Of a DNA stretch of 22,536 nt, positions 1-22,536 are shown piece by piece. The notes beneath the pieces were generated by a model. The model was not told the DNA's origin, searched no databases, and worked only from the letters and a program-made list of their open reading frames with translations. How positions within the stretch are numbered: the first letter of the stretch is position 1; every line of letters begins with the position of its first letter. Location of the stretch: NCBI GenBank assembly GCA_015523565.1, contig WAKA01000004.1, positions 1 to 22,536 on the forward strand, in the 5' to 3' direction. The translations under genes and the position numbers were made by a program. Origin of the DNA: Candidatus Heimdallarchaeota archaeon (GTDB taxonomy: Archaea; Asgardarchaeota; Heimdallarchaeia; Heimdallarchaeales; Kariarchaeaceae).

Positions 1-620
1 AACAGCTCGACAGCCTGATGGAAGAGATAGTTAAAAATTATTTGATATACAAAGAATTCAAAAATCAACTTGATGCATATTTGGCTCGAAAGGACAGGTT
101 AGTCCCTGTGGAAACCATAGAGCAGTTGGAAGAGAAAATCCTCAAGAGAGCTGAAGGAATTGCCAAGAAGAAAAACGTAAATCCAGCAGGCAAAACCTAT
201 ATCACGCAAGAACAGCTTGACAGCCTGATGAAGAAGATATTTAAAGATTATTTAACACATAAAGAATTCAAGAATCAACTTGATGCATATTTGGCTCGAA
301 AGGACAGGTTAGTCCCTGTGGAAATCATAGAGCAGTTGGAAGAGAAAATCCTCAAGAGAGCTGAAGGAATTGCCAAGAAGAAAAACGTAAATCCAGCAGG
401 CAAAACCCATATCACACAAGAACAGCTCGACAGCCTGATGGAAGAGATAGTTAAAATATATTCTGCATATAAAGCAGAAAAAACACATATTACACAAGAA
501 CAGTTCGATTACGTAATGGAAGAGATATTTAAAAAATATTCGACATACCAACCAGGCAAAACTTATATCACGCAAGAACAGCTCGACAGCCTGATGGAAG
601 AAATATTTAGATCCTATACA
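1..620 (+). repeat. In-frame tandem repeats within rpoA2: two 210-bp (70-aa) units (1-210, 211-420), then 78-bp (26-aa) period units starting at 421, 499 and 577
   Basis: The anchor aacag(c/t)t(c/t)ga recurs at 1, 211, 421, 499 and 577. By hand count units 1 and 2 differ at 14 of 210 positions. The peptide KT(H/Y)ITQEQ(L/F)D..M..I recurs. Confidence 0.95.
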
Positions 621-3053
621 TTTGCCGAAATGGAACCTGGCACATCTGCGGGGGTTGTTTCTGCACAAAGTATTGGAGAACCAGGAACACAAATGTCATT
701 GAGTGGAGATGAGATTGTCCTAATAATGGATGAAAACGTTGTCCAGACGGTGTTCATTGGTGATTTCATTGATGAGCTATTGATGAGCGAAAAAGTAGTC
801 AAGCAGGGGGATACGGAATACCTTGATTTTCCAGAAGATTATCACGTCTATGTGCCTGCTGTTTCTGAAGAGGAAACCATCCAATGGAAAAGACTGAAAC
901 AGGTCAGTAGACATGCACCAAATGGAGATCTTCTCCACGTTAAAACCGCAAGTGGTAGGCAAATCATTGCCACACCAAGTCATTCCTTCATTACACGAAA
1001 GAATGGAAAAATCGTTGCGGTTCGTGGAGATCAACTTACAACAGAAGATTTTGTCCCAATTGCGATGGGCATACCAACAATCAATCCAATTTCCACAATC
1101 TATTTTGAGGAAGACAGCGTCAGGTTGGGACACACAGTTATTGAACAGGCATTGGTAACACCTCAAGGAGAGATTGTGGCACCTTCAGAAAGCTCAAGCA
1201 AGTTTTCCCTTCCTCTGACAGAGACATGGGGATATTTCTTGGGAACATTGATAACAGTGGGATACAATGACGGGGAAGAACTCACGATTGCATCATCCAA
1301 TCCCAATATTTATGAGGAACTTGTGGCATATTTTGAAGAAAATGACCTTAATGTATCCTTGGCGAGAGACCATGTGGAAAACCAACTTTATGAAATTAAA
1401 ATTACAGGAGAGGATCTTGCCTATGCAATGGACTTGTTGATTGATTCCTTTGATGAAGGGACTTCCACTCCTGTTTGGGTATTGAATACGCCAAATGATT
1501 TCATTAAAGGGTTTATCCAAGGAGTTTTCGATCATGGAGCAGATGTAGAAAACGGCATTGTTTTCAAATTCCAAAACCCCGACTTTGTTAAGCTTCTTGC
1601 CCATATGCTTGGAAAGTTTGGCATATTTGCATTGATTGACACCCAATCTGAAACGTCATCCCTTCAAATACCAGTTGAAATGCTTAATCAATTCAATGAT
1701 GTTGTTGGATTTAGGTCACCTTCGAAAGCAAATGACCTATTGACAAAGATTTCCCAAGTTGGCAGAAAAGATTCTGTTCCCGGACTCAAAGAAACATTGA
1801 ACCAATTAAAATCAAAATTGGGAATTGATTTAGAAATCAAGGATGCGATCAGCAGGGAAGAAATTCTTGAAATTATTAAGAAAGCCCAGGAAGCAGAAAA
1901 TACAGATGAGGAAATACAGCAACTTGTCAAGGCATATGAAAGCCCCATTTATTGGGATCGCATTGTCTCAATAGAATATGAGAAACCATTTACAAAATAT
2001 GTTTATGATTTTGCGGTAGAAGGTTTGGAGACATTTACAACCTTTGATGGCATCATCACCCACAATACCTTGAGAACTTTCCACTTTGCAGGGGTCAGGG
2101 AAATGAATGTCACATTGGGGCTTCCTAGACTTATTGAACTGGTGGATGCAAGAAGAAACCCAAGCACCCCTTCGATGACCGTTGCTCTCAAAGGAGAATA
2201 TGCCTCGGATGAGACAAAAGCAAAACAGGTTGCACAGAATATCGAACTTACAACCATCCATAGCGTGGCAAAAGGGCTTGAAATAGATCAAATACATCTC
2301 AGGGTCAATATCTTGCTTGATGAAGAACTCCTGATTGATAAGGGAATTACTGCGGAAGATATCAAGCAAAAGATCATTGAAAAAAGAGTTGCACAAAAGG
2401 TCATGGTCGAAGAAAATCTGATTATTGTTACACCAGACAAGGAAGACCCGACACTTCAAGACCTTCAAAAACTTTCTGAAAAACTCAGGCTTATACCCAT
2501 TAAGGGATTGCGAGGAGTAAACAGGGTGATGATCCGTAAGAAAAAGATTGATGAGGGAGATGACGAAAAAGTCGAATATGAAATACTTACGGAAGGAAGC
2601 AACTTTAAGCAATTGATGAGGGTTCTTGGAGTCGATCCAAGAAACTCATATACAAACCACATCCATGAAATTGCAGAAACCTTGGGTATTGAAGCCGCAA
2701 GAAATGCAATCATCAAGGAAGCAAAGGAAGTCATGGAAAAACAGGGGCTTGAAGTTGATGACAGACATATGATGCTGGTGGCTGATCTGATGACGTTTTC
2801 TGGAGATATCAGACAAATAGGAAGACATGGTATCTCTGGAGAAAATGCATCAATCCTTGCAAGAGCAGGGTTTGAAGTCACAGTCAAACACCTGCTTGAC
2901 GCGGCTGTCAGAGGAGAAGAGGATCACCTTGTCGGCATCATTGAAAATGTCATTGTAGGTCAAGAAATCGCAATAGGCACTGGGATGGTTGATTTGACCA
3001 TTTCTCCAAATTATAGGGAATTCGCACCCAAAAAACAAAACAAATCGTCGTAA
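3..3053 (+). CDS. rpoA2: DNA-directed RNA polymerase subunit A'' (Rpo1C, or the C-terminal part of a fused Rpo1), intein-containing, 5'-truncated by the window edge
   Basis: Hallmark motifs SAQSIGEPGTQM|TLRTFHFAG, NVTLGLPRLIELVDAR, LGIEAARNAI, VDDRHMMLVADLMT, IGRHG, ARAGFE and ENVIVGQ..IGTG. The frame is open from base 3 (QLDSL before the ATG at 18), so the true start is probably upstream of the window. Confidence 0.97.
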   Translation, partial: QLDSLMEEIVKNYLIYKEFKNQLDAYLARKDRLVPVETIEQLEEKILKRAEGIAKKKNVNPAGKTYITQEQLDSLMKKIFKDYLTHKEFKNQLDAYLARKDRLVPVEIIEQLEEKILKRAEGIAKKKNVNPAGKTHITQEQLDSLMEEIVKIYSAYKAEKTHITQEQFDYVMEEIFKKYSTYQPGKTYITQEQLDSLMEEIFRSYTFAEMEPGTSAGVVSAQSIGEPGTQMSLSGDEIVLIMDENVVQTVFIGDFIDELLMSEKVVKQGDTEYLDFPEDYHVYVPAVSEEETIQWKRLKQVSRHAPNGDLLHVKTASGRQIIATPSHSFITRKNGKIVAVRGDQLTTEDFVPIAMGIPTINPISTIYFEEDSVRLGHTVIEQALVTPQGEIVAPSESSSKFSLPLTETWGYFLGTLITVGYNDGEELTIASSNPNIYEELVAYFEENDLNVSLARDHVENQLYEIKITGEDLAYAMDLLIDSFDEGTSTPVWVLNTPNDFIKGFIQGVFDHGADVENGIVFKFQNPDFVKLLAHMLGKFGIFALIDTQSETSSLQIPVEMLNQFNDVVGFRSPSKANDLLTKISQVGRKDSVPGLKETLNQLKSKLGIDLEIKDAISREEILEIIKKAQEAENTDEEIQQLVKAYESPIYWDRIVSIEYEKPFTKYVYDFAVEGLETFTTFDGIITHNTLRTFHFAGVREMNVTLGLPRLIELVDARRNPSTPSMTVALKGEYASDETKAKQVAQNIELTTIHSVAKGLEIDQIHLRVNILLDEELLIDKGITAEDIKQKIIEKRVAQKVMVEENLIIVTPDKEDPTLQDLQKLSEKLRLIPIKGLRGVNRVMIRKKKIDEGDDEKVEYEILTEGSNFKQLMRVLGVDPRNSYTNHIHEIAETLGIEAARNAIIKEAKEVMEKQGLEVDDRHMMLVADLMTFSGDIRQIGRHGISGENASILARAGFEVTVKHLLDAAVRGEEDHLVGIIENVIVGQEIAIGTGMVDLTISPNYREFAPKKQNKSS
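696..2066 (+). mobile_element. Intein (457 aa) in RNAP A'' with a degenerate LAGLIDADG homing endonuclease domain
   Basis: Interrupts GEPGTQM|TLRTFH. It starts with Ser (SLSGDEIVLI, block A), has block B (IATPSHSF), blocks F/G (VYDFAVEGLETF...IITHN) and a +1 Thr. Endonuclease-like blocks are YFLGTLITVG, FIQGVFDHGA and LLAHMLGKFGI. Confidence 0.95.
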
Positions 3054-3103: not shown

Positions 3104-3547
3104 ATGACTAGATCAAAGAGTCCAAATGGTGAATTCGCTGCAAGGAAACTTCTAAAGAAAAGACAGAAAATGAGATGGAAGGACATTTATTATAAAAGAA
3201 GAATGTTGGGACTGAACAAAAAGGCAGACCCTCTTGAAGGTGCACCACAAGCGACAGGAGTCGTCTTGGACAAATATGGTGTCGGTTCCAAACAGCCAAA
3301 CAGTGCTCTTAGAAAATGTGTCCGTGTCCAACTGATCAAAAATGGAAAGCAGATAGGAGCATTTGTCCCACATGACGGAGGATTGCTTTACATAAACGTT
3401 CATGACCAAGTCACTGTGGAAGGCATTGGTGGTGCTCAAAAAGGTGCAAAGGGTGACATCCCAGGTATTAAGTGGAGAGTGATGAAAGTCAATGGAGTTG
3501 CCCTTTCTGAGTTAGTCACTGGTCGCAAGGAAAAAGCAAATAGGTAA
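3104..3547 (+). CDS. rps12: 30S ribosomal protein S12 (uS12, archaeal/eukaryotic S23 type)
   Basis: [57 protein letters not shown]. Confidence 0.98.
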
Positions 3548-3553
3548 AGATTT

Positions 3554-4192
3554 TCAGGAAGCCATTTTTATTAAATAATACTTTTTGCGAAGCTTGAAAA
3601 ATTTCTTGGCAAATTCCGTCTCACTAATCTCAACATCATCAAATTGATCTTCCAATTGATCCAAGGCAGTTTCCAGATCCAATAAGGTATCTTCAACCAA
3701 TTGTTTCCTATTGATTTCATTGACTGGACTATTCTGCACTTGCATCAATTCTTTTTGTTTTTCTGCAATCATTGCTTCCAATTGTTGAACTTGGGTTTTT
3801 AATGCCTCCTTCTGAAGATTTAGCCCTGTGGAATGGGATGGGGAACTGGCAATTATCTGGAGACGACCACCCCTTATCAAGGTTTCTGCTTCTTTAATTA
3901 TCTGGAAAACATGGTAGTCAGACCTCCATCGCCTCATTCGACGAGTATGGAGATACCCTTCAGGATCCGCACTAGGATGACTCCCATTCAAGATTCGAAC
4001 AGAAGGGGGACGGTGAGGAAAATCATGGGGAATCTCTACAAGTACTTCGACAGGGTTACCAGAAGAATCCGATATGCGTCCAATCCATCTATGCAAGTTT
4101 CCGTGATCAGGAGAAAATCCAGCATTATACCTGTATATTAAAAATGCCTCTTTGCTTAGGGTAGCATCATCAACCATTTTCAATTTCATCAT
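3554..4192 (-). CDS. UEV (catalytically inactive E2 fold) + coiled coil + Vps23/Vps37 core-like C-terminus; ESCRT-I-like subunit
   Basis: E2-fold pattern W.G.I...V.VEIPHDFPHRPPSVRI...HPSADPEGYLH...W, with no catalytic Cys (the protein has no Cys). A heptad coiled coil LKTQVQQLEAMIAEKQKELMQ follows. The C-terminus LDQLEDQFDDVEISETEFAKKFFKLRKKYY resembles the Vps37 Mod(r)/Vps23 steadiness-box hairpin. Confidence 0.75.
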   Translation of the reverse strand: MMKLKMVDDATLSKEAFLIYRYNAGFSPDHGNLHRWIGRISDSSGNPVEVLVEIPHDFPHRPPSVRILNGSHPSADPEGYLHTRRMRRWRSDYHVFQIIKEAETLIRGGRLQIIASSPSHSTGLNLQKEALKTQVQQLEAMIAEKQKELMQVQNSPVNEINRKQLVEDTLLDLETALDQLEDQFDDVEISETEFAKKFFKLRKKYYLIKMAS

Positions 4193-6285: not shown

Positions 6286-6421
6286 TAATTATGATAAAAA
6301 TGGGAGATATTTATGTATCTCTAAGAAGAAAGAAGTAAAAAAAAAGATTTCACAAGTTAGTATTGCAATATTTGCTTATAGAGATATTTAATAATATGAA
6401 CTTCCTGTGGTATTTAGAAAA

Positions 6422-7210
6422 ATGAGCGAAGAAACTAGCGCAGTAAAGAGGACACTCAAATTCATCGTACAAAATATCGATAAGCTAAGAGAGCAAGTGG
6501 GGCTTAAATTTGCTGAGATCGAACAACAATTGGAATTGTTCCAAAAAGAAATCAACACCATAAAAGGGCAGGTTGAAAATATCAAAAGTATAGTGACGAA
6601 ACCTCAAGCTACCTCTGAATTTACACAATTGGCACAACGCCTTGATTCATTAGAAAAGGCAGTTGCATCACTCAGTTCAACAATCCATACACCACAACAA
6701 ACATCAACATATATTCCCACACCACCTGTCAGACAGCAAATGCCACCACCAGTTTCTCCACAACCCACAGTACCAAGTTCTGCAGGAGTTATCCCACCAG
6801 CACCCACGGGTAGACCACCAACACCACAGCCAACCCCTACACCATCACCTGCACAAACACCAAGACCAACGACCATTCCTTCACCAACGCCACAGCCAAC
6901 CTCTACACCATCACCTGCACAAACACCAAGACCAACAACCATTCCTTCACCAACGCCACAGCCAACCACCACACCGTCACCCACCACTCCTCCACCAGCG
7001 CAAACACCGCAACCAGCCCCCATTTCCCCACCAACGCAAACGCCATTGTCACCAACCAAACCTACCACACCAACCCAACCACATACAACAACGCCTACAA
7101 CCACTACAATTCCAAAAACTAGCAGTATTTCTACAAAGAAACCGTCAATTGACTTGACAGACGACAAAAAAGAACTTATGGAAGCATTGAAAAGAATTGA
7201 AGGAATTTAA
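6422..7210 (+). CDS. Hypothetical protein: N-terminal coiled coil, ~150-aa Pro/Thr-rich linker, C-terminal amphipathic helix
   Basis: ORF 6407-7210; the ATG at 6422 is preferred over the GTG at 6407. Heptad pattern in the first ~85 aa, a low-complexity P/T/S/Q middle, and the end DDKKELMEALKRIEGI. Confidence 0.8.
   Translation: MSEETSAVKRTLKFIVQNIDKLREQVGLKFAEIEQQLELFQKEINTIKGQVENIKSIVTKPQATSEFTQLAQRLDSLEKAVASLSSTIHTPQQTSTYIPTPPVRQQMPPPVSPQPTVPSSAGVIPPAPTGRPPTPQPTPTPSPAQTPRPTTIPSPTPQPTSTPSPAQTPRPTTIPSPTPQPTTTPSPTTPPPAQTPQPAPISPPTQTPLSPTKPTTPTQPHTTTPTTTTIPKTSSISTKKPSIDLTDDKKELMEALKRIEGI
6818..6982 (+). repeat. 66-bp (22-aa) coding tandem repeat, 2.5 copies (PTPQPTxTPSPAQTPRPTTIPS)
   Basis: Near-identical units at 6818-6883 and 6884-6949, plus a partial unit at 6950-6982. 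Confidence 0.9.
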
Positions 7211-11171: not shown

Positions 11172-11912
11172 TCATTTGGAACCAAATATCCTGTTCTTGA
11201 GTGGAGTATAAATCTCATCCCGTAGAGTATCAATCCATAGGGTAATGGGATCCAAGATTCTTACATTTCTTTTCTCAATCATGAAAGTGAAAAGAATAGT
11301 CCCGACAAACCCCAATGGTTCTCCCATCCTGTCGTGGGCAAGAGTCCAGGCATACTCATGGGAAACACCAAAATCATATGAAAGGACAGTTGTAATGGCA
11401 ATCATGGCGGCAATCCTGAGGGTATTGCCAATGAACAGGAAAAGCAGAACCAAAAAGGAAGCATTGATCCTGTCCTTTATTTTCGCGGGTGTTGACCAGA
11501 TCAAACCCAACAACAACGACCCTGCCTGCATCCCTGTACAAGCACGGACAATAATGTAATAATTGGGTACACCAACCTCACCTTCAATGGAAATTGCAGG
11601 ATATGTGGCTCGCGAAGAGTCATAAAGATTGTAAAGTATCCGATCAACGAAACCAAGAGCAGAGGTTTGGTCTTCATAGATGAAAAGCCGTGGGTTAAAA
11701 CCAAATATGTTCAGGAAGAAATAGCTAACCTTAGTTGTCAGCATTTCCAGACCAAAATATGGGGGGAATACATAAAGCACCACGGTCATCATGAATGTAA
11801 ATCCAAAAGAATATAATGCATAGTTTCTTCTTTCTTTGCCCTTCAGCGTAAGTAATGGATGGGAATCATCTTCAGTTGGAATCAGTCTTTCAAAATCAGG
11901 TAGTTCCAGCAT
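11172..11912 (-). CDS. Archaeosortase/exosortase family transpeptidase
   Basis: Catalytic triad motifs IIVRACTG (Cys), GNTLRI (Asn/Arg) and LAHD (His) in a multi-TM protein. The ATG at 11912 with upstream GGAG is preferred over the GTG at 11936. Confidence 0.85.
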   Translation of the reverse strand: MLELPDFERLIPTEDDSHPLLTLKGKERRNYALYSFGFTFMMTVVLYVFPPYFGLEMLTTKVSYFFLNIFGFNPRLFIYEDQTSALGFVDRILYNLYDSSRATYPAISIEGEVGVPNYYIIVRACTGMQAGSLLLGLIWSTPAKIKDRINASFLVLLFLFIGNTLRIAAMIAITTVLSYDFGVSHEYAWTLAHDRMGEPLGFVGTILFTFMIEKRNVRILDPITLWIDTLRDEIYTPLKNRIFGSK

Positions 11913-11997
11913 ACATTTTTCTCTCCTTTTATTCACTTAAATAACTATCCTTTCTGGAATACTACAAAGATAAACAGACATGTCTTCTTTTGACAGG

Positions 11998-12701: not shown

Positions 12702-14258
12702 ATGTTAATTGGTCTTGTAAGAAGACTGGGTGAGATTAAATCCAATCAGTCTGAACGAATAATACTTGAGACAGCCATTAAAAATCAAAAACCATACAAA
12801 CAGAAGGAGTTCTTCGCGGTTGACGTAAACCTTGAAGATGGGCAATATAAAATCCATCTTGAAGAATATGATTCAAATAAAGAATTATTATATCTCAGGG
12901 GTATTAAGGGAGGTCATTCGGAAAACTTATCTCCAGTCCTCAATGTTAAACCAAAAGAAAAAGAGAAGGAAAAGATACTCAATATTTCGAAGTTTCCTTC
13001 TGAAAATACATTGTTTCGAAAATATGGTCTGAAAAGAGAGGAGTTCCCAATTTATACAAATTTGATCAGATGGTTTGAAAACAAAAAGGAAAATATCCAA
13101 GAAGACATTCAATCACTAATAACACAGAACTACATAAACGAGAAAACAAAAAAAATTGGAAATAATGCCCCTACAATGGTTGTTTTTAAAGTGTTAAAAG
13201 ACGGAGACCATTGTTATCCTGGAGAAATTGATGAGTTTGTACAAGCATACCTCCACATGAATACACCGCCAAAACCAAAAAAATCACAAATTGGCACATG
13301 CATGGCCTGTGGTCAGAAAAAACCATTGACAACCACAAAAGACATTAAAACAGACCTTTTTGAATTCTTTTCCCTTGATTTGAATAATTTTATTATAGGA
13401 ATGGATAATTCCAAAACATGGCAATTGACCCTTTGCTTGGATTGTCAAGACCTTGTAAAACTAGGACTTTCTGTGTTGGACAATGAATTGAAATTCAGGG
13501 CATACACAAAAAAAATTGATTCCAAAAAAACCTTGTTTGTTGATCATTCACTTCTGCCAACTGCTTATGGGGAACAATTAGTTATCCAAGTAATAAACAA
13601 TTTGAAAAAAATCAGAAGGGAAAAATCAGAAGAGGAAAGACAGTCCATCCGTAAAGAAATAGAAGAGATCCAGCAAAGGATGGAAAGAGCAAACAAAAAA
13701 GCAATAAGAAAATTGAAAAGTGAGCTAAAGAAAAAGGAAGAGACATTTGGTAAAATAAAAGACTTTGCACAGATTGATGAAAGAGAGGTGTTGAAACAGT
13801 TTGCTGAAAAAGGAGTATCGTATGTGGACCTCTATTATATCAATGAATCTGTGGGGGTTGGAAACTCAAAAAAGGTATTCATGGACATGACATTTGTCAA
13901 TGCCAAAACTCTGAAGGAACTTTTGACACAGATTGACAGGATTGAACAGGAATTCGCAAGCAAAAACCTCCTTGTCTGGAAAGGAAAACCATACAGGTTT
14001 GAATTCGGAAAATTATATTCACTGTTCACCATAAAGATGGCAGACTTAGTCAGGAAAGCATTACTTACAAGAATCACTGTCAAGGAAAGAGAATTGGCAA
14101 GAGATGCCTTGAAAAGCTTAAGAGACCCATTTTTGAAACTTAATGCAGGGATTGATAAAAACATATGGATCAGTAGGGAGGAATACCATCAACGACTCAG
14201 CACTTTCCTCTTTGTTGACCAACTGTTGAATTCACTCAACCTATTGAAGGAGAAATAA
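12702..14258 (+). CDS. cas8b: CRISPR type I-B large subunit Cas8b (Csh1/TM1802-like), lacking its C-terminal helical domain
   Basis: First gene of the cas operon, upstream of cas7/cas5/cas3. Zn ribbon CMAC...LCLDC, FFSLD..NF, YL.G..G..S.NLSP. GGAGG precedes the ATG. Confidence 0.75.
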   Translation: MLIGLVRRLGEIKSNQSERIILETAIKNQKPYKQKEFFAVDVNLEDGQYKIHLEEYDSNKELLYLRGIKGGHSENLSPVLNVKPKEKEKEKILNISKFPSENTLFRKYGLKREEFPIYTNLIRWFENKKENIQEDIQSLITQNYINEKTKKIGNNAPTMVVFKVLKDGDHCYPGEIDEFVQAYLHMNTPPKPKKSQIGTCMACGQKKPLTTTKDIKTDLFEFFSLDLNNFIIGMDNSKTWQLTLCLDCQDLVKLGLSVLDNELKFRAYTKKIDSKKTLFVDHSLLPTAYGEQLVIQVINNLKKIRREKSEEERQSIRKEIEEIQQRMERANKKAIRKLKSELKKKEETFGKIKDFAQIDEREVLKQFAEKGVSYVDLYYINESVGVGNSKKVFMDMTFVNAKTLKELLTQIDRIEQEFASKNLLVWKGKPYRFEFGKLYSLFTIKMADLVRKALLTRITVKERELARDALKSLRDPFLKLNAGIDKNIWISREEYHQRLSTFLFVDQLLNSLNLLKEK

Positions 14259-14261
14259 AGC

Positions 14262-14705
14262 ATGACCGAAAAATCTTTTGAGGAAAAACTTAGGGAAGAC
14301 AATGCATTCCTTGAGAAAATCTTCAACACAAACTATTTTGAAAACAGACCTGATAGGCAATTGGCTTACCTTGTCGGAAGATATTATTCAAAAGCCACCT
14401 ATCTGCAACAGAGGGAGCTAAAAACAAATAGCCTCATTAAGAAGCTTCCTAATTTCACCAAACGACTAGATCTGCAAAAGATCAATTCAATGATGAACGA
14501 ATGCAATCTGGTGCTGCAGAAAATAGCATCAATGAAGAAAACCAGCAATGTGATGCTTGCAGACCTTAGGAACAGAATTTTTGACCTAATGCAAGCCATT
14601 GAGGAAATCACCAGCGACCATAATGAGCTGGGAATTGCATTCCAAATGGGCTACGACAGCTCACTTGCACAGTTAAGAACTGAAGAGGAGGAAAACAAAA
14701 AATGA
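14262..14705 (+). CDS. cas11: Cas11-like small subunit (equivalent to the Cas8b C-terminal domain), encoded as its own ORF
   Basis: 147-aa all-helical protein between cas8 and cas7. AYLVGRYYSKATYLQ and AFQMGY match the Cas8b/Cas8c C-terminal (Cas11) pattern. AAGGAG precedes the ATG. Confidence 0.7.
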   Translation: MTEKSFEEKLREDNAFLEKIFNTNYFENRPDRQLAYLVGRYYSKATYLQQRELKTNSLIKKLPNFTKRLDLQKINSMMNECNLVLQKIASMKKTSNVMLADLRNRIFDLMQAIEEITSDHNELGIAFQMGYDSSLAQLRTEEEENKK

Positions 14706-15625
14706 ACAAAAGAAGAGAAATCGTATTCATTTATGATGTAAGAGACAGTAATCCAAACGGAGACCCCGATGACCAGAACAGACCAAGAATGGACGAAGAC
14801 GACTATAACGTTGTCACTGACCTAAGACTCAAAAGAACAATCAGAGACTATTGGTTGACAAAAGAGTCGGAAGGAAACCAAGTCTTGGTAAGAAGAAAAG
14901 TCGTGGAAAAAGATGGAACAGTCATGTCAATGAAACAATTGATTAAGGATGCTCTTGCAATAGACAAAGTAGAGGGTGATACCCGCGAAAAGATCAGAAA
15001 GGGACTCCCTGAAAAATTTGTTGATGTAAGGGCATTCGGAGTTGTAGGAACCGTAGAAGGCGCAAATGTTGCATTGACGGGCCCTGTACAGTTCTCCATT
15101 GGAAGATCAATGAACAAGCCAACCATCAAAAGCTATTCCATCTCATCAACAATAGCCTCTGAAGAAGGAAAAGGACAGGGATCATTGGGAGAGTTCCATA
15201 CCATAGACTATTCACTCATCAAGTTTCATGGCATTGCCTGTGAATACAATGCAAAAGAAACCAATTTCACAGAAGATGACCTCAAATATGTCTACGAGGG
15301 AATGTGGAACGGAACCAAAAGACTCAATACCAGAAGCAAAGTCAACCATGTTCCAAGACTTCTTTTGGCGGTTGTTTCCAAAGAAAGAGAATTCCAAATT
15401 GGAGACATAGATAAGGGATTGATCCTTGAAAATGAGGAAGGAATCAAAACACCTGACCAAGCAATCGTCAATATTTCCGGTTTACTTCAAAGGCTCAACC
15501 AATTCAAGAATTCCATTGATTCAATTGAATTGAAGGAGGACGGAACATTGACATTTACTGACGGCTCAAAAACCTCCCAAAAAATAGAAGATTTTCTTGG
15601 AGGATTCAATATCATCCATATCTAA
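14702..15625 (+). CDS. cas7: CRISPR-associated Cas7 (Csh2/Cas7b family)
   Basis: NPNGDPD..NRPRMD, VTD.RLKRTIRDY, DVRAFG, TGPVQFS.GRS, MWNG....TRSK....PRLLL. ATGA overlap with the upstream gene. Confidence 0.95.
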   Translation: MNKRREIVFIYDVRDSNPNGDPDDQNRPRMDEDDYNVVTDLRLKRTIRDYWLTKESEGNQVLVRRKVVEKDGTVMSMKQLIKDALAIDKVEGDTREKIRKGLPEKFVDVRAFGVVGTVEGANVALTGPVQFSIGRSMNKPTIKSYSISSTIASEEGKGQGSLGEFHTIDYSLIKFHGIACEYNAKETNFTEDDLKYVYEGMWNGTKRLNTRSKVNHVPRLLLAVVSKEREFQIGDIDKGLILENEEGIKTPDQAIVNISGLLQRLNQFKNSIDSIELKEDGTLTFTDGSKTSQKIEDFLGGFNIIHI

Positions 15626-15637
15626 GGAGGTCAGGGC

Positions 15638-16486
15638 TTGAAAGCATTGGTGACCACCATCCAAGGGGATTTCGCCCATTTCAGGGTTCCTGAAACCACA
15701 CGGGAAAACTTGAGCTATCCATTCCCACCAAAAACTGCAATCATCGGAATGTTTGCCGCCACTTTAGGAATTCAAAAAAATGAATATTGGGACGAAAACC
15801 ACCCTTTGCAATCACTAAAGGTCGCCTTGGAAATCATCAACCCCTTGAAAAGAACTTTTATGAAAGTCAATTACATCAGAGTAAAGGAAATAATCAACAT
15901 TACAAGAGGAACAAAAATTTTCTTGCCTGAAGACCCTTTTGCCACAGAACTTATTGAATTAAAAGGAAAGGAATACAAGAAAAAGAAAGACTTCTCAAAA
16001 TATAAAATGGGAATGAATGCACCCTTCAAAATGAACATGATGAAGGACGTCGCCTATAGGATATATGCAACAACAGACAACAAGGAACTATATGATGAAC
16101 TGAAACAAAGATTCATTGACAGGAAATTCACTTTCCCGCCATATCTGGGACATGCAAACCTGTTGGCACACTGGGTTTATGAAGGGGAATACGAAATAAA
16201 ACCAATCTACGAAATGGATAAAATCGAATGCCATTCAATCGTTCCCTTCTCAGCTTTGGATATGCAACGGGAAACATACGACCTGTCGGGAATCCCTGTC
16301 ATTTATAATGTCCCAATGACCATGAAAGCGGTCAATCCCAAGAAAAAGATTTCAATCTGGAACATGATCGTCGACAAAACAGATTCAGTATTCCTTGTCA
16401 GACCAGATGAACCTTTTGTCGGATATTTCAAGAAGGGACATGCATATACTGTCAAGGATATTGAAAAAACCATTACCTTCCTATAG
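15638..16486 (+). CDS. cas5: CRISPR-associated Cas5 (type I-B)
   Basis: GDFAHFR.P......SYPFPPKTAIIGMFAA.LG, DV.YRIY, F.PYLG. TTG start preceded by AAGGAGGT. Confidence 0.93.
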   Translation: MKALVTTIQGDFAHFRVPETTRENLSYPFPPKTAIIGMFAATLGIQKNEYWDENHPLQSLKVALEIINPLKRTFMKVNYIRVKEIINITRGTKIFLPEDPFATELIELKGKEYKKKKDFSKYKMGMNAPFKMNMMKDVAYRIYATTDNKELYDELKQRFIDRKFTFPPYLGHANLLAHWVYEGEYEIKPIYEMDKIECHSIVPFSALDMQRETYDLSGIPVIYNVPMTMKAVNPKKKISIWNMIVDKTDSVFLVRPDEPFVGYFKKGHAYTVKDIEKTITFL

Positions 16487-19054
16487 GTGAACCATTTGGA
16501 AGAGTCCAAATTACATGACTTCCCCTATGGAAAAATACTTTGGGCAAGACCAGACCAACCATTGGAACAGCATCTATCCAGCTTGAGAAAAAATATCCAC
16601 AAATATAAATTCAAGATTCCATTTTTCCAATTGCCCTCAGATGCATTGGGAATCCAAAGTGATGAGACAATCCACCTGCCACATTGGCTGGTTATGGACT
16701 TGATGAGCATCCTTGTCGCCTGCCATGATTTCGGGAAGTTGTCCCCGCATTTCCAATATAAAATCATCGGCAACAAACTCCCAAAGCAGCAAATCGCATT
16801 AAGCTACCATACAAAGACCAGCGGGTTTTTCGCCTATTACCTCTTGGACGAATATTTCCATCAGTACAAGAAGGAAATCGTGAATAATTTGCCAGACAGC
16901 AGGATATTCAAAATCATCAGGGACACCTTCACAGCAAGTATAACCTATTCAATCATCAACCACCATACACCAAAACTGAGCACAACATTGGGTGAAAAAA
17001 TCGAACTTGAAAATGAAACACTCATAACCATTGCATTGCTGGTCAACCATGTCTATCCACAAAAGTTCATTGTCGACATCCCAAATGAAGTGCACAATAA
17101 AGAGTCATCAGTGGCAGAACTGCTGCAAGCCGCATTGAAATTGTCGAAACCAGCAGAACACATCATTGAGAAGGCACTTGAAAGACTTAAAGAACTAGTA
17201 GACCCAATTGATTTGGAAATCACACTTGAAACAACAGATATCAGGGAGATGGATACCAATTGGCTTTATGACCTTTATGACGAACTGGAAGAATTGTGGG
17301 AACAAACACAGGAAAAACCCTTGCTCTTCAATGCATTCCTTTTCATGCATTCCATGCTTGGAAACCTGGATGAATGGGATGCCCGAACATTCCACCAAAA
17401 TTCCGACCAGCATGACGACGAATTTGATTGGGACTATAACTGTTTCATGCCTTTTGACTCAGTTGACAGATTTAGGATCAAAAAGTTTGGATCAATCAAT
17501 AACCATGATGAACGATCCGCAAGAATAATTTCGCTCAGAAACAACCTCTATGAAAATGTCAGGGACACATCCATTCCTGACAACCCATCTGCATTCATAA
17601 TCGAGGCACCGACAGGAGCCGCTAAAACATTGGCAATGATAAATCTCGCCCTTAAACTCGCAAAAAAGCAACACGGACAGACAGGTAAAACCCCCCGCAT
17701 CATCTACGCCCTTCCGTTCGTGTCAATCACCGATCAAGTGGGAGAAGTAATCAAAGAGGTATTGAAGCAAAACAACATTTCCACTAAAAACCTGATCGTC
17801 CACCACCAGTACTCTGAATTCCCAGAATATGTGTTCGAACCCATGTTTGACGAGGACAAGGAAGAGGTCACAATTACACGGGCATTAACTGCAACTAAAC
17901 TATGGCATGCACCCATTATTGCAACAACATTCGTCTCACTCATGAACACCATATTTTCAGGAGTAAAAAGATCAATCCTAAGATTCCATAGGATTGCAGG
18001 ATCAATCATCATCCTCGATGAGGTGCAGTCAATTCCGCCAAGGCATTGGGAAATCGTGTCAATGACCCTAGACCATCTAATAAGGCATTTCAACAGCAAT
18101 ATCATCATCGGGTCCGCCACCAATCCAAAACCGCTCTCAAATTCAATCAGGAACACCGTGAAAATAAAGCCAGACACAAAACCATTGCAAATGGTCAACA
18201 GGTATACACTGAAAATAGAACATCAACCCCAGACAATCGATCAATTCATAGAAAGATTTTCAGAACCCGTAACCACAATGATCGTTGTCAACACAAGAAA
18301 ATCCTGCAGGACAATCTATGACAACCTGATCAAGAAATTCCCTGAAAACCATGTATTCCTCCTGTCAACTTGGCTAAGACCTATTGACAGAAAAAGAACA
18401 ATCAAGACCATCCAGCAAAGACTGAAACACAATTTGACCACAATCCTCGTCACCACACAGGTTGTTGAGGCAGGAGTGGACCTAAGTTTTGATACAGTCT
18501 ACAGGGATTTTGCACCCCTCGATTCAATAATCCAAGTCGCAGGAAGATGCAACAGGAATTTCGAAAGGGAAATGGGAACCGTAAACCTCATCAACCTCGT
18601 AAATGAAAACAACAGCCCATTTGCACCGTTAATCTATGACAAGGTCTCACTGGAAGCAACTAAGGAACTACTTGAAAATGTCACTGAATTGGATGAACTG
18701 GAACTCAGAAAATTAACCCACAGGTATTACAGCAACATTGCTCAAAGAAGAGTCACATCAAAGGCACTCAAGGAAAGAATGATAACAGACATTCCAAAAC
18801 TGAGCCAGACATTCAAGCTTATCGAGGAAAGACCACAAACAAGCCTTGCCATTGTCCCCAAACGCTACCTCCAAATACTGAACTTCCAAAGGAAAACAAC
18901 AATAAAAGTCCTTAACCTTTTCACAATTGCAATAAGCCATAATGACCTGAAAAACATCAAGCACAAAAAGAGAAAAATCTCAGGAACAGAGGTGCGAATC
19001 ACCACAATAGAGGAATGCGACAACTATAGCAAAAAAGCAGGCTTGTCCGTCTAG
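16487..19054 (+). CDS. cas3: CRISPR-associated Cas3 (HD nuclease fused to SF2 helicase)
   Basis: HD domain L.QHL, CHDFGK, INHH, LD..DA. Helicase APTGAAKT, IIYALPF.SITDQ, ILDEVQ, SAT, VVNT, TQVVEAGVD.SFD, APLDSIIQ.AGRCNR. Confidence 0.96.
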   Translation: MNHLEESKLHDFPYGKILWARPDQPLEQHLSSLRKNIHKYKFKIPFFQLPSDALGIQSDETIHLPHWLVMDLMSILVACHDFGKLSPHFQYKIIGNKLPKQQIALSYHTKTSGFFAYYLLDEYFHQYKKEIVNNLPDSRIFKIIRDTFTASITYSIINHHTPKLSTTLGEKIELENETLITIALLVNHVYPQKFIVDIPNEVHNKESSVAELLQAALKLSKPAEHIIEKALERLKELVDPIDLEITLETTDIREMDTNWLYDLYDELEELWEQTQEKPLLFNAFLFMHSMLGNLDEWDARTFHQNSDQHDDEFDWDYNCFMPFDSVDRFRIKKFGSINNHDERSARIISLRNNLYENVRDTSIPDNPSAFIIEAPTGAAKTLAMINLALKLAKKQHGQTGKTPRIIYALPFVSITDQVGEVIKEVLKQNNISTKNLIVHHQYSEFPEYVFEPMFDEDKEEVTITRALTATKLWHAPIIATTFVSLMNTIFSGVKRSILRFHRIAGSIIILDEVQSIPPRHWEIVSMTLDHLIRHFNSNIIIGSATNPKPLSNSIRNTVKIKPDTKPLQMVNRYTLKIEHQPQTIDQFIERFSEPVTTMIVVNTRKSCRTIYDNLIKKFPENHVFLLSTWLRPIDRKRTIKTIQQRLKHNLTTILVTTQVVEAGVDLSFDTVYRDFAPLDSIIQVAGRCNRNFEREMGTVNLINLVNENNSPFAPLIYDKVSLEATKELLENVTELDELELRKLTHRYYSNIAQRRVTSKALKERMITDIPKLSQTFKLIEERPQTSLAIVPKRYLQILNFQRKTTIKVLNLFTIAISHNDLKNIKHKKRKISGTEVRITTIEECDNYSKKAGLSV

Positions 19055-19059
19055 ACATT

Positions 19060-19923
19060 TCAGAGCATATGAACCATGGTTTTACGCAAAAATACCCTGT
19101 CAAAGTCAAAACGCCCCAAACCCGCGGAACGCCCTCGTCCAACACCAGTCAAGAACCCCAATTTCAGTAAATGAAACATGATTTCGGCGGCATCCGCACT
19201 GTCCGCACCAAGCTTGACCAACCCAACCCAACCCTTATGAACCTGATCCTTGCCCGTATGAACTGTAATGATGGAACCCTTGGCATAGTGCAAACTAACA
19301 TGGTCATGCATGTATTTGACAGTGCTCTCCTCGTCAATTGCATTGTCAGGATACCAAACATTCCAGATGGACACCAAATTGGGAAAAATATACTTGGGAT
19401 CAGGCCATACAAAGAAACTGGAACCAGTACTGAAAGAAACAGGAGTCTGGAAACGAATGGCAACAGGATTTCCCAATTTTACCCCACCAAGCCTCGTGAT
19501 ATCAAAAGGAACCAATTGCAATGGCTCAAGAACCAAACCATCGTATTCTGCCCTCCAATTGCCTGAAAATACCTTCGGAATGACACTTGAAAGGGAATCA
19601 TTGCAGGTTGCCACATCCATGTACACAATCTCCCCCTCTTGCAATCCCGAATCCTTCGATCGCCTTCTCATCGGTGCACCAAAAGCAGTCCGCATCCTGT
19701 TGAGCAGGTCATTGCCAGACGAAGAAGGAAAATGAACCTTGCCAAATTGAGTCAACGAATAATCCAAGATCCCCTCCTGATCATGGACATCTTTCGCCAA
19801 ATGAGAATCATAGGCATCCAATGCCTTGAAAAACATGCCACGAGCCATGGCTCCCGAAAAACGGGGAATGGTTCCAAATGCCGCAGTCCTGAAAAACAAC
19901 CTGAAGTACTTGACTTCTCCCAC
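19060..19923 (-). CDS. cas6: CRISPR-associated endoribonuclease Cas6
   Basis: C-terminal Gly-rich loop GVGRGRSAGLG, RFQTPVSF, PDP..IF.NL...WN, GW.G.V, and an N-terminal A..VHD......YSL. Convergent with cas3. Confidence 0.9.
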   Translation of the reverse strand: MGEVKYFRLFFRTAAFGTIPRFSGAMARGMFFKALDAYDSHLAKDVHDQEGILDYSLTQFGKVHFPSSSGNDLLNRMRTAFGAPMRRRSKDSGLQEGEIVYMDVATCNDSLSSVIPKVFSGNWRAEYDGLVLEPLQLVPFDITRLGGVKLGNPVAIRFQTPVSFSTGSSFFVWPDPKYIFPNLVSIWNVWYPDNAIDEESTVKYMHDHVSLHYAKGSIITVHTGKDQVHKGWVGLVKLGADSADAAEIMFHLLKLGFLTGVGRGRSAGLGRFDFDRVFLRKTMVHML

Positions 19924-21851: not shown

Positions 21852-22536
21852 AAACCAATCCAATTTCTAGGTTTTAGAGCTTCGCGACAGAACTCGACAG
21901 AACTCGACAAAAGTGTTTCAATCCTATTTCTAGGTTTTAGAGCTTCGCGACTTAAAGCAACCTTTGGTTTATTATTCATTTGATGAAGAGTTTCAATCCT
22001 ATTTCTAGGTTTTAGAGCTTCGCGACCACAGCAACCATACATCCATTATCTGTCAACGGCTTGTGTTTCAATCCTATTTCTAGGTTTTAGAGCTTCGCGA
22101 CTGACAAACGAACATGAACTGTACATCACATTCCATCTATTTCAATCCTATTTCTAGGTTTTAGAGCTTCGCGACTATGCCTGCGAGCACCTGGTTATAT
22201 ATCCAGGTGCATAATTTCAATCCTATTTCTAGGTTTTAGAGCTTCGCGACGCGTTTTTGACCGCTGATATCAATTATGGCGGAACAGAATTTCAATCCTA
22301 TTTCTAGGTTTTAGAGCTTCGCGACGTTAATGTAAGAAGGGATGTATCGGAAAACCACCCAGTTTCAATCCTATTTCTAGGTTTTAGAGCTTCGCGACTA
22401 AGAAGGAAGAAGCAGTATTACAGGAAATCTAAAAGTTTCAATCCTATTTCTAGGTTTTAGAGCTTCGCGACTTTATATTAGTAACAATAATAGTCATAAC
22501 TATTTGTTGTTTCAATCCTATTTCTAGGTTTTAGAG
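21852..22536 (-). CRISPR. CRISPR array (trailer end): 37-bp repeat GTCGCGAAGCTCTAAAACCTAGAAATAGGATTGAAAC (minus strand), 10 repeats and 9 spacers visible, continuing beyond the window
   Basis: Repeats start at 21852 (degenerate), 21915, 21990, 22065, 22139, 22214, 22289, 22362, 22435 and 22509 (truncated). Spacers are 26, 38, 38, 37, 38, 38, 36, 36 and 37 bp. Orientation comes from the ATTGAAAC 3' end, the CCTA-GAAA-TAGG hairpin just before the 8-nt handle, and the degenerate repeat at the left end. Confidence 0.99.

Follow-up and report, generated by a model that had tools for sequence, protein, structure and literature searches.

The DNA analysed here, referred to as the window, comprises 22,536 nucleotides of contig C4 (WAKA01000004.1) in the assembly GCA_015523565.1 of Candidatus Heimdallarchaeota archaeon, a deep-sea vent Asgard archaeon. 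The first base of the window is also the first base of the contig, and it lies inside a tandem array at the N terminus of the RNA polymerase subunit A'' (Rpo1C). A second contig, C169, also terminates inside this array, and its positions 18872-19068 overlap window 1-197 with three mismatches. A first-pass annotation, made from the window alone, had suspected that the array extends upstream, and this is borne out by the two contig ends. The joined gene encodes 1079 aa (622 aa once the intein is spliced out) and carries at its N terminus three full 70-aa copies of a three-helix foot module and two partial 26-aa copies (+192 aa). The features of the locus are as follows.

3..3053, forward strand: A'' (Rpo1C) open reading frame, 1016 codons in the window; the 5' part is missing, and the start codon lies at C169:18685.
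1..32, forward strand: end (last helix) of full unit 1, the remainder of which lies on C169:18694-18871.
33..242, forward strand: full unit 2, 70 aa, in the order strand-helix-helix-strand-helix; where it overlaps the end of C169, 3 bases differ.
243..452, forward strand: full unit 3, 70 aa.
453..530, forward strand: partial unit s1, 26 aa, a unit minus 44 aa (helices 1-2); the most diverged copy.
531..608, forward strand: partial unit s2, 26 aa, with the native helix, which continues into the conserved RSY.
553..601, forward strand: 49-nt exact direct repeat, the other copy of which is C169:18848-18896.
609..695, forward strand: conserved core segment before the trigger loop (EPG ... AQSIGEPGTQM).
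696..2066, forward strand: 457-aa intein in the GTQM/TLRTFH motif, common to relatives of the same genus and outside the repeat.

The open reading frame matches PF04998, contains the trigger-loop motif and scores above the cut-off of the A'' family model TIGR02389 (421.8 versus 420.65). The gene for A' ends with a stop codon at C169:18671, and A'' begins with an ATG of its own at C169:18685, preceded by the ribosome-binding site GGAGGT; the two genes are therefore split. A fused A'A'' (Rpo1), which the first-pass annotation had considered, is ruled out by the same stop codon and ribosome-binding site. Translational restart within the array was also ruled out, since the internal ATGs have no preceding ribosome-binding site. 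A'' is a separate frame directly downstream of A', and both lie on one scaffold in L025, an independent ENA assembly (sample SAMN12239301). The split point between A' and A'' falls in the interval separating bridge helix from trigger loop (PMC8131849). The protein resembles archaeal Rpo1C (TIGR02389; 4qiw_C, 2waq_C, 7ok0) in being encoded by a separate gene after A', in its N-terminal helical foot segment and trigger-loop motif, and in having an intein at the usual motif. It differs in the length of the N terminus: 283 residues precede the AQS motif in the joined gene, which is 192 more than the roughly 91 found in relatives, and ordinary archaeal A'' has about 60-95. The intein is found in the genus and in scattered relatives and is absent in others; some congeners have a faint LAGLIDADG match. 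Fused A'A'' genes were seen in some other Asgard genomes (loci L107, L108 and L119; genomes G016, G124 and G122).

Within the open frame 3..3053, TRF detects repeats of 210 nt at 1-456 (2.2 copies, 92% matches) and of 78 nt at 395-609 (2.8 copies, 78% matches), the latter corresponding to the in-frame 26-aa sub-repeats that had been noted after the 70-aa units. The earlier count of 14 differences between two 70-aa units, 10 of them in the first 50 of 210 nt, is exact for window 1-210 versus 211-420, and the clustering has a P of about 0.003 (circular-window permutation). The true number for this pair may be 17, because bases 92, 95 and 102 of the first of these two units differ from the overlapping end of C169. 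In every copy the differences affect all four bases and not adenines alone, by which TR/VR mutagenesis from a diversity-generating retroelement was ruled out. All four junctions share one breakpoint, where the end of the last helix is joined to codon 4. The invariant R and near-invariant S that follow this helix are kept in the terminal copy only and are missing from all internal copies. Recombination between the two 49-nt repeats would delete 576 nt, leaving a gene with one unit. Other long in-frame repeats in the same genome are mostly of ordinary repeat-protein types.

The first-pass annotation had placed the module at the end of the foot region. Consistent with this placement, profile alignment places the unit on Rpo1C 13-86, with its last helix on yeast Rpb1 1036-1058 (profile match 1036-1080); the foot domain of eukaryotic Rpb1 corresponds to yeast residues ~871-1058. 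In AF2 models of relatives the unit forms a three-helix bundle (strand-helix-helix-strand-helix) with a pLDDT of about 80-90 over residues 11-80, and a single-sequence model of window 3-695 has a pLDDT of 38. Foldseek gave no significant match, the top rows being weak hits to RPC1 (E 0.76-2.7), and VIA gave a Z of 4.3 to 2waq_C 11-72, a value not above that of unrelated bundles. By its alignment to Rpo1C and to the foot helices of Rpb1, the unit is identified as the foot module of the largest RNA polymerase subunit.

To assess the array in read data, the vent sequencing run X1 and a further run, X2, were searched as Logan contigs and unitigs (k=31). X1 contains pieces over 33-95, 168-305, 276-347, 318-407, 378-446, 417-582 and 572-1500, and also a unit-1 variant of 318-406. 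When k=31 unitigs were simulated for 1, 2, 3 and 4 units, the 1- and 2-unit models were ruled out by boundaries that do not match, and the 3- and 4-unit models reproduced the X1 boundaries with the middle-unit path pruned, except for one split in the unit-1 piece. The middle-unit path is absent from the X1 contigs. Depth on 318-407 is ~2x that of unique sequence (about 50 shared versus 25 unique), and the predicted ratio is 1.87 for three units and 2.73 for four; X1 fits three better, with unitig depth serving as a rough guide only. With the upstream sequence included, the data are best accounted for by three full units plus two partial ones. Because the X1 unitigs match the three-unit model almost boundary for boundary, including head-to-tail junctions at a depth of 16-25, the array is real and not a misassembly, and the first-pass annotation's conclusion against a simple assembly duplication is supported. 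Concatenation of alleles of co-occurring strains at contig ends is scarcely credible: the array does straddle a break between two contigs whose overlap carries 3 mismatches, but the read-derived head-to-tail junctions of X1 are impossible from allelic variants, the copies (7-9% different) diverge far more than the strains do, and the reading frame and synonymous bias are preserved. Residual depth in X1 near 167-197 suggests an extra 31-nt record at ~10x, which may be a minor recombinant allele. L025 is identical to the present contigs upstream (BLAST 2859/2859) and has 3 differences in 5.5 kb downstream. A scan of JGI metagenomes yielded no relatives, and no partial proteins of the array were found from other assemblies.

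The divergence of the copies bears on the age of the array. Compared in pairs, the full units diverge at 15-25% of their synonymous sites and at 4-6% of their non-synonymous ones; for s1, synonymous divergence reaches about 40-70%. The changes that separate the three full units, 12 of them synonymous and 13 non-synonymous, give a dN/dS of 0.27 (P=0.0014 against neutrality), a value drawn from these 25 changes and from the join of two contigs. Two rows of the codon comparison, G009 and G011, were shifted by one codon and were left out. Compared with the congener P0002, the units give a dN/dS of 0.16-0.19 at saturated synonymous sites. The ~20% synonymous divergence and the dN/dS of ~0.27 indicate that the array predates the divergence of the strains and has been purged of damaging changes. 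Judged by the copies themselves, it is younger than the species splits and much older than the differences between strains. The earlier description of a recent internal expansion therefore stands in part: the expansion is real, in frame and absent from close relatives, but it is recent at the species level only (synonymous divergence of 0.15-0.25 between copies versus 3 differences in 8.3 kb between strains). Selection preserves frame and fold; a new activity need not be involved.

Tandem copies occur in one of the 46 genomes of the order with a match, that of the host, and in none of the other 45; family relatives have one unit (11/11). A repeat architecture common to related archaea, which the first-pass annotation had named as an observation against a recent expansion, is thus not seen within the order, and is seen in part more widely, as older arrays in Methanobrevibacter. 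There, A'' proteins (P0212, P0246, P0226 and others) are 496-1021 aa long with about 2-10 diverged module copies at a 43-aa period; RpoA2 of M. olleyae (557 aa) has about 5 copies and that of M. millerae (496 aa) has 3. An HMM of the terminal module matches 122 of 123 Methanobrevibacter upstream segments and 0 of 123 when these are reversed or shuffled. In both groups the enzyme's own terminal foot module is repeated in tandem upstream of the conserved core. The Methanobrevibacter arrays, with a period of about 43 aa, are old, highly diverged and spread over many genomes, whereas the present array has a 70-aa period, 91-93% DNA identity between copies and a single species as host. The Methanobrevibacter HMM does not score the window units, which is consistent with independent origins. 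No description of tandem foot-module arrays or N-terminal extensions of A''/RpoA2 was found in the literature searched, the coverage of which was limited.

Additions of other kinds are found at the same terminus. Older module copies are also present in P0014, from a vent archaeon, and in P0031; Lys-rich tails occur in the congener P0006 and in members of another Asgard family (L109-L116); HhH domains occur in P0005, and several Thermoplasmatota have HhH-like extensions. Taken together, these sequences mark the A'' N terminus as a permissive, recurrent hotspot for additions. The tails of P0006 (L006), L109-L116 and L126, many of them from that other Asgard family, are Lys/Thr-rich and pentapeptide-like. 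In P0005 (L106:624-2423), from a related vent archaeon, the A'' N terminus is fused to two HhH-like domains and a Lys-rich linker. In L117 (G127:C10), two CxxC...CxxC zinc-finger-like segments replace helices 1-2, and in L043, from an uncultured archaeon, more than 500 residues unrelated to A' lie in frame upstream of the A'' motif. The Si3 insertion of cyanobacterial beta', built of tandem SBHM repeats, is an example of a lineage-specific RNA polymerase insertion of repeated domains. It is likewise a small repeated domain added to the surface of the largest subunit, but it is a different domain at a different site (the trigger loop), old and fixed, while here it is the enzyme's own foot module that is repeated.

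On balance, we favour the interpretation that the array is a tolerated, folded surface appendage, which arose by tandem duplication at the free N terminus of the split A''. A first duplication would have placed codon 4 directly after the end of the last foot helix, and all the junctions probably descend from it, because the four share one breakpoint. Further rounds would then have given three full units, and an internal 132-nt deletion with another duplication the two 26-aa units. The single-sequence model of the array was uninformative (pLDDT 38), and the assignment of the docking helices is an inference. The terminal helix, as the sole copy before the invariant R-S-Y, would dock into the core in the normal manner, and the foot would be completed by the first two helices of one unit, likeliest unit 1 because it has the fewest amino-acid changes. 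The remaining copies may form small folded bundles of helices on the outside of the enzyme. Through the 49-nt repeat the array could revert to one unit, and a collapsed allele probably coexists with it. The persistence of an unstable array through a dS of about 0.2 hints that something may favour it, which counts against regarding it as merely tolerated.

Two indirect lines of evidence make it fairly likely that a one-unit allele is present in the population together with the array. The alternative, a minority prospect but a serious one, is that the real array is in all cells and that the apparent collapse in X2 and L025 reflects graph simplification; it departs from the favoured interpretation on polymorphism alone. 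In X2, a single 343-nt contig consists of upstream DNA, unit 1 and window 553-636. The join in this contig crosses the exact 49-nt repeat, which exceeds the Logan k of 31, and a pruned loop could mimic it; X1 too lost an internal path, and X2 is a low-depth, strain-rich run. The lack in X2 of any piece over 201-550, even of those expected at double depth, is by itself no proof of absence but speaks for a one-unit allele. In L025, a 100-N gap lies exactly between two copies of the 49-nt repeat. In simulated assemblies, a fork at both break points requires the two alleles together at k of 55 or 77, and arises from the array alone as well at k of 33. The two ends in L025 lie exactly at the two-allele fork for k >=50; the break is also expected from the expanded allele alone if the final k was <=49. 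Unit 1 of the X2 contig differs from the window at 10 positions, the same number as unit 1 of C169. Because the contig also carries the derived I-to-V change of unit 1, which is absent from the internal copies and from relatives, the one-unit form would probably have arisen recently, by collapse across the 49-nt repeat, instead of being ancestral. A structured part of an essential enzyme has here been amplified about four-fold and retained by purifying selection, and within the one species it has probably also been lost again.

The extra modules could also be adaptive, either by multiplying a foot surface that binds Rpo5, nucleic acid, a factor linked to transcription or, while the enzyme assembles, the A' C terminus, or by acting as a shield or as decoys that counter a viral polymerase inhibitor, with copy number tuning the effect. 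We consider this the main alternative, though rather unlikely. The internal copies are under purifying selection, yet a dN/dS of 0.27 fits selection against misfolding equally well. The novel junction changes faster, and basic tails and HhH domains have been gained repeatedly at the same terminus, both of which speak for an adaptive role. The independent, long-kept arrays of M. olleyae and M. millerae also favour it, but every other matching genome of the order has one unit, and a one-unit allele probably persists within the species itself. None of the internal copies retains the R-S that invariably follows the last helix. Foot mutants of yeast disturb Pol II assembly (PMC10778713), which indicates that the foot region matters but does not in itself assign a role to the extra copies.

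A broader form of this proposal extends beyond the present species. The free A'' N terminus would be an unrecognised docking platform, on which several lineages independently multiplied the foot module for partner valency or for deflection of viral inhibitors, with copy number switching within the population in the present case. The lineages concerned would be this Asgard archaeon, Methanobrevibacter and others. This is a conjecture to which we attach little probability. Foot-module arrays recur on A'' of culturable gut methanogens, in which this architecture is open to experiment.

The array had further been proposed as a model for how the larger eukaryotic foot arose, and this is not supported, because the enlargement of the Pol II foot is mostly an insertion upstream of the module. 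The spacing from YG-DG to PVN is 10 residues in archaea and 75-88 in Pol II-like proteins, a gain of 65-78 residues before PVN, in the A'-derived half, without repetition of the module. In favour of the proposal, the last helix of the unit aligns from yeast Rpb1 1036 onward, which puts the module in the terminal part of the Pol II foot, and the host belongs to a Heimdallarchaeia lineage. In contrast, the eukaryotic foot is enlarged by non-repetitive insertion mainly in the A'-derived half; in Pol III-like proteins the length varies after PVN, again without repeats, and no self-repeat of the terminal module was shown in any of the Pol II- and Pol III-like proteins examined. The A' of the host itself has the short archaeal YG-DG/PVN spacing, not a eukaryote-type enlarged foot, and the array is confined to a single species, in which A' and A'' are split. 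It is very improbable that the expansion recapitulates the eukaryotic route, and the array appears to tell nothing about the origin of the eukaryotic foot.

The remainder of the window contains several other features. Archaeal operons usually have the L30e and NusA genes between A'' and S12/S23.

3104-3547: ribosomal protein S12/S23, directly after A'' without L30e and NusA genes between; the same order is found in the congener L130.
3554-4192, reverse strand: UEV/E2-like domain joined to a Mod(r) coiled coil; the protein resembles Vps23/Vps37 and is of an ESCRT-I type characteristic of Asgard archaea.
6407-7210, forward strand: coiled-coil protein with a Pro/Thr-rich low-complexity tail containing a 66-nt repeat (94% matches).
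11172-11936, reverse strand: heimdallarchaeosortase, above the cut-off of NF045528, in keeping with a Heimdallarchaeia host.
12702-19923: Type I-B CRISPR-Cas genes (Cas7/Csh2, Cas5b, Cas3 and a convergent Cas6).
12702-14705: probable Cas8b with small subunit, with no match to an NCBIfam model.
21860-22536: CRISPR array with repeats of about 37 nt, running to the contig end; a degenerate first repeat is followed by a 10-nt tandem where a spacer would be expected.
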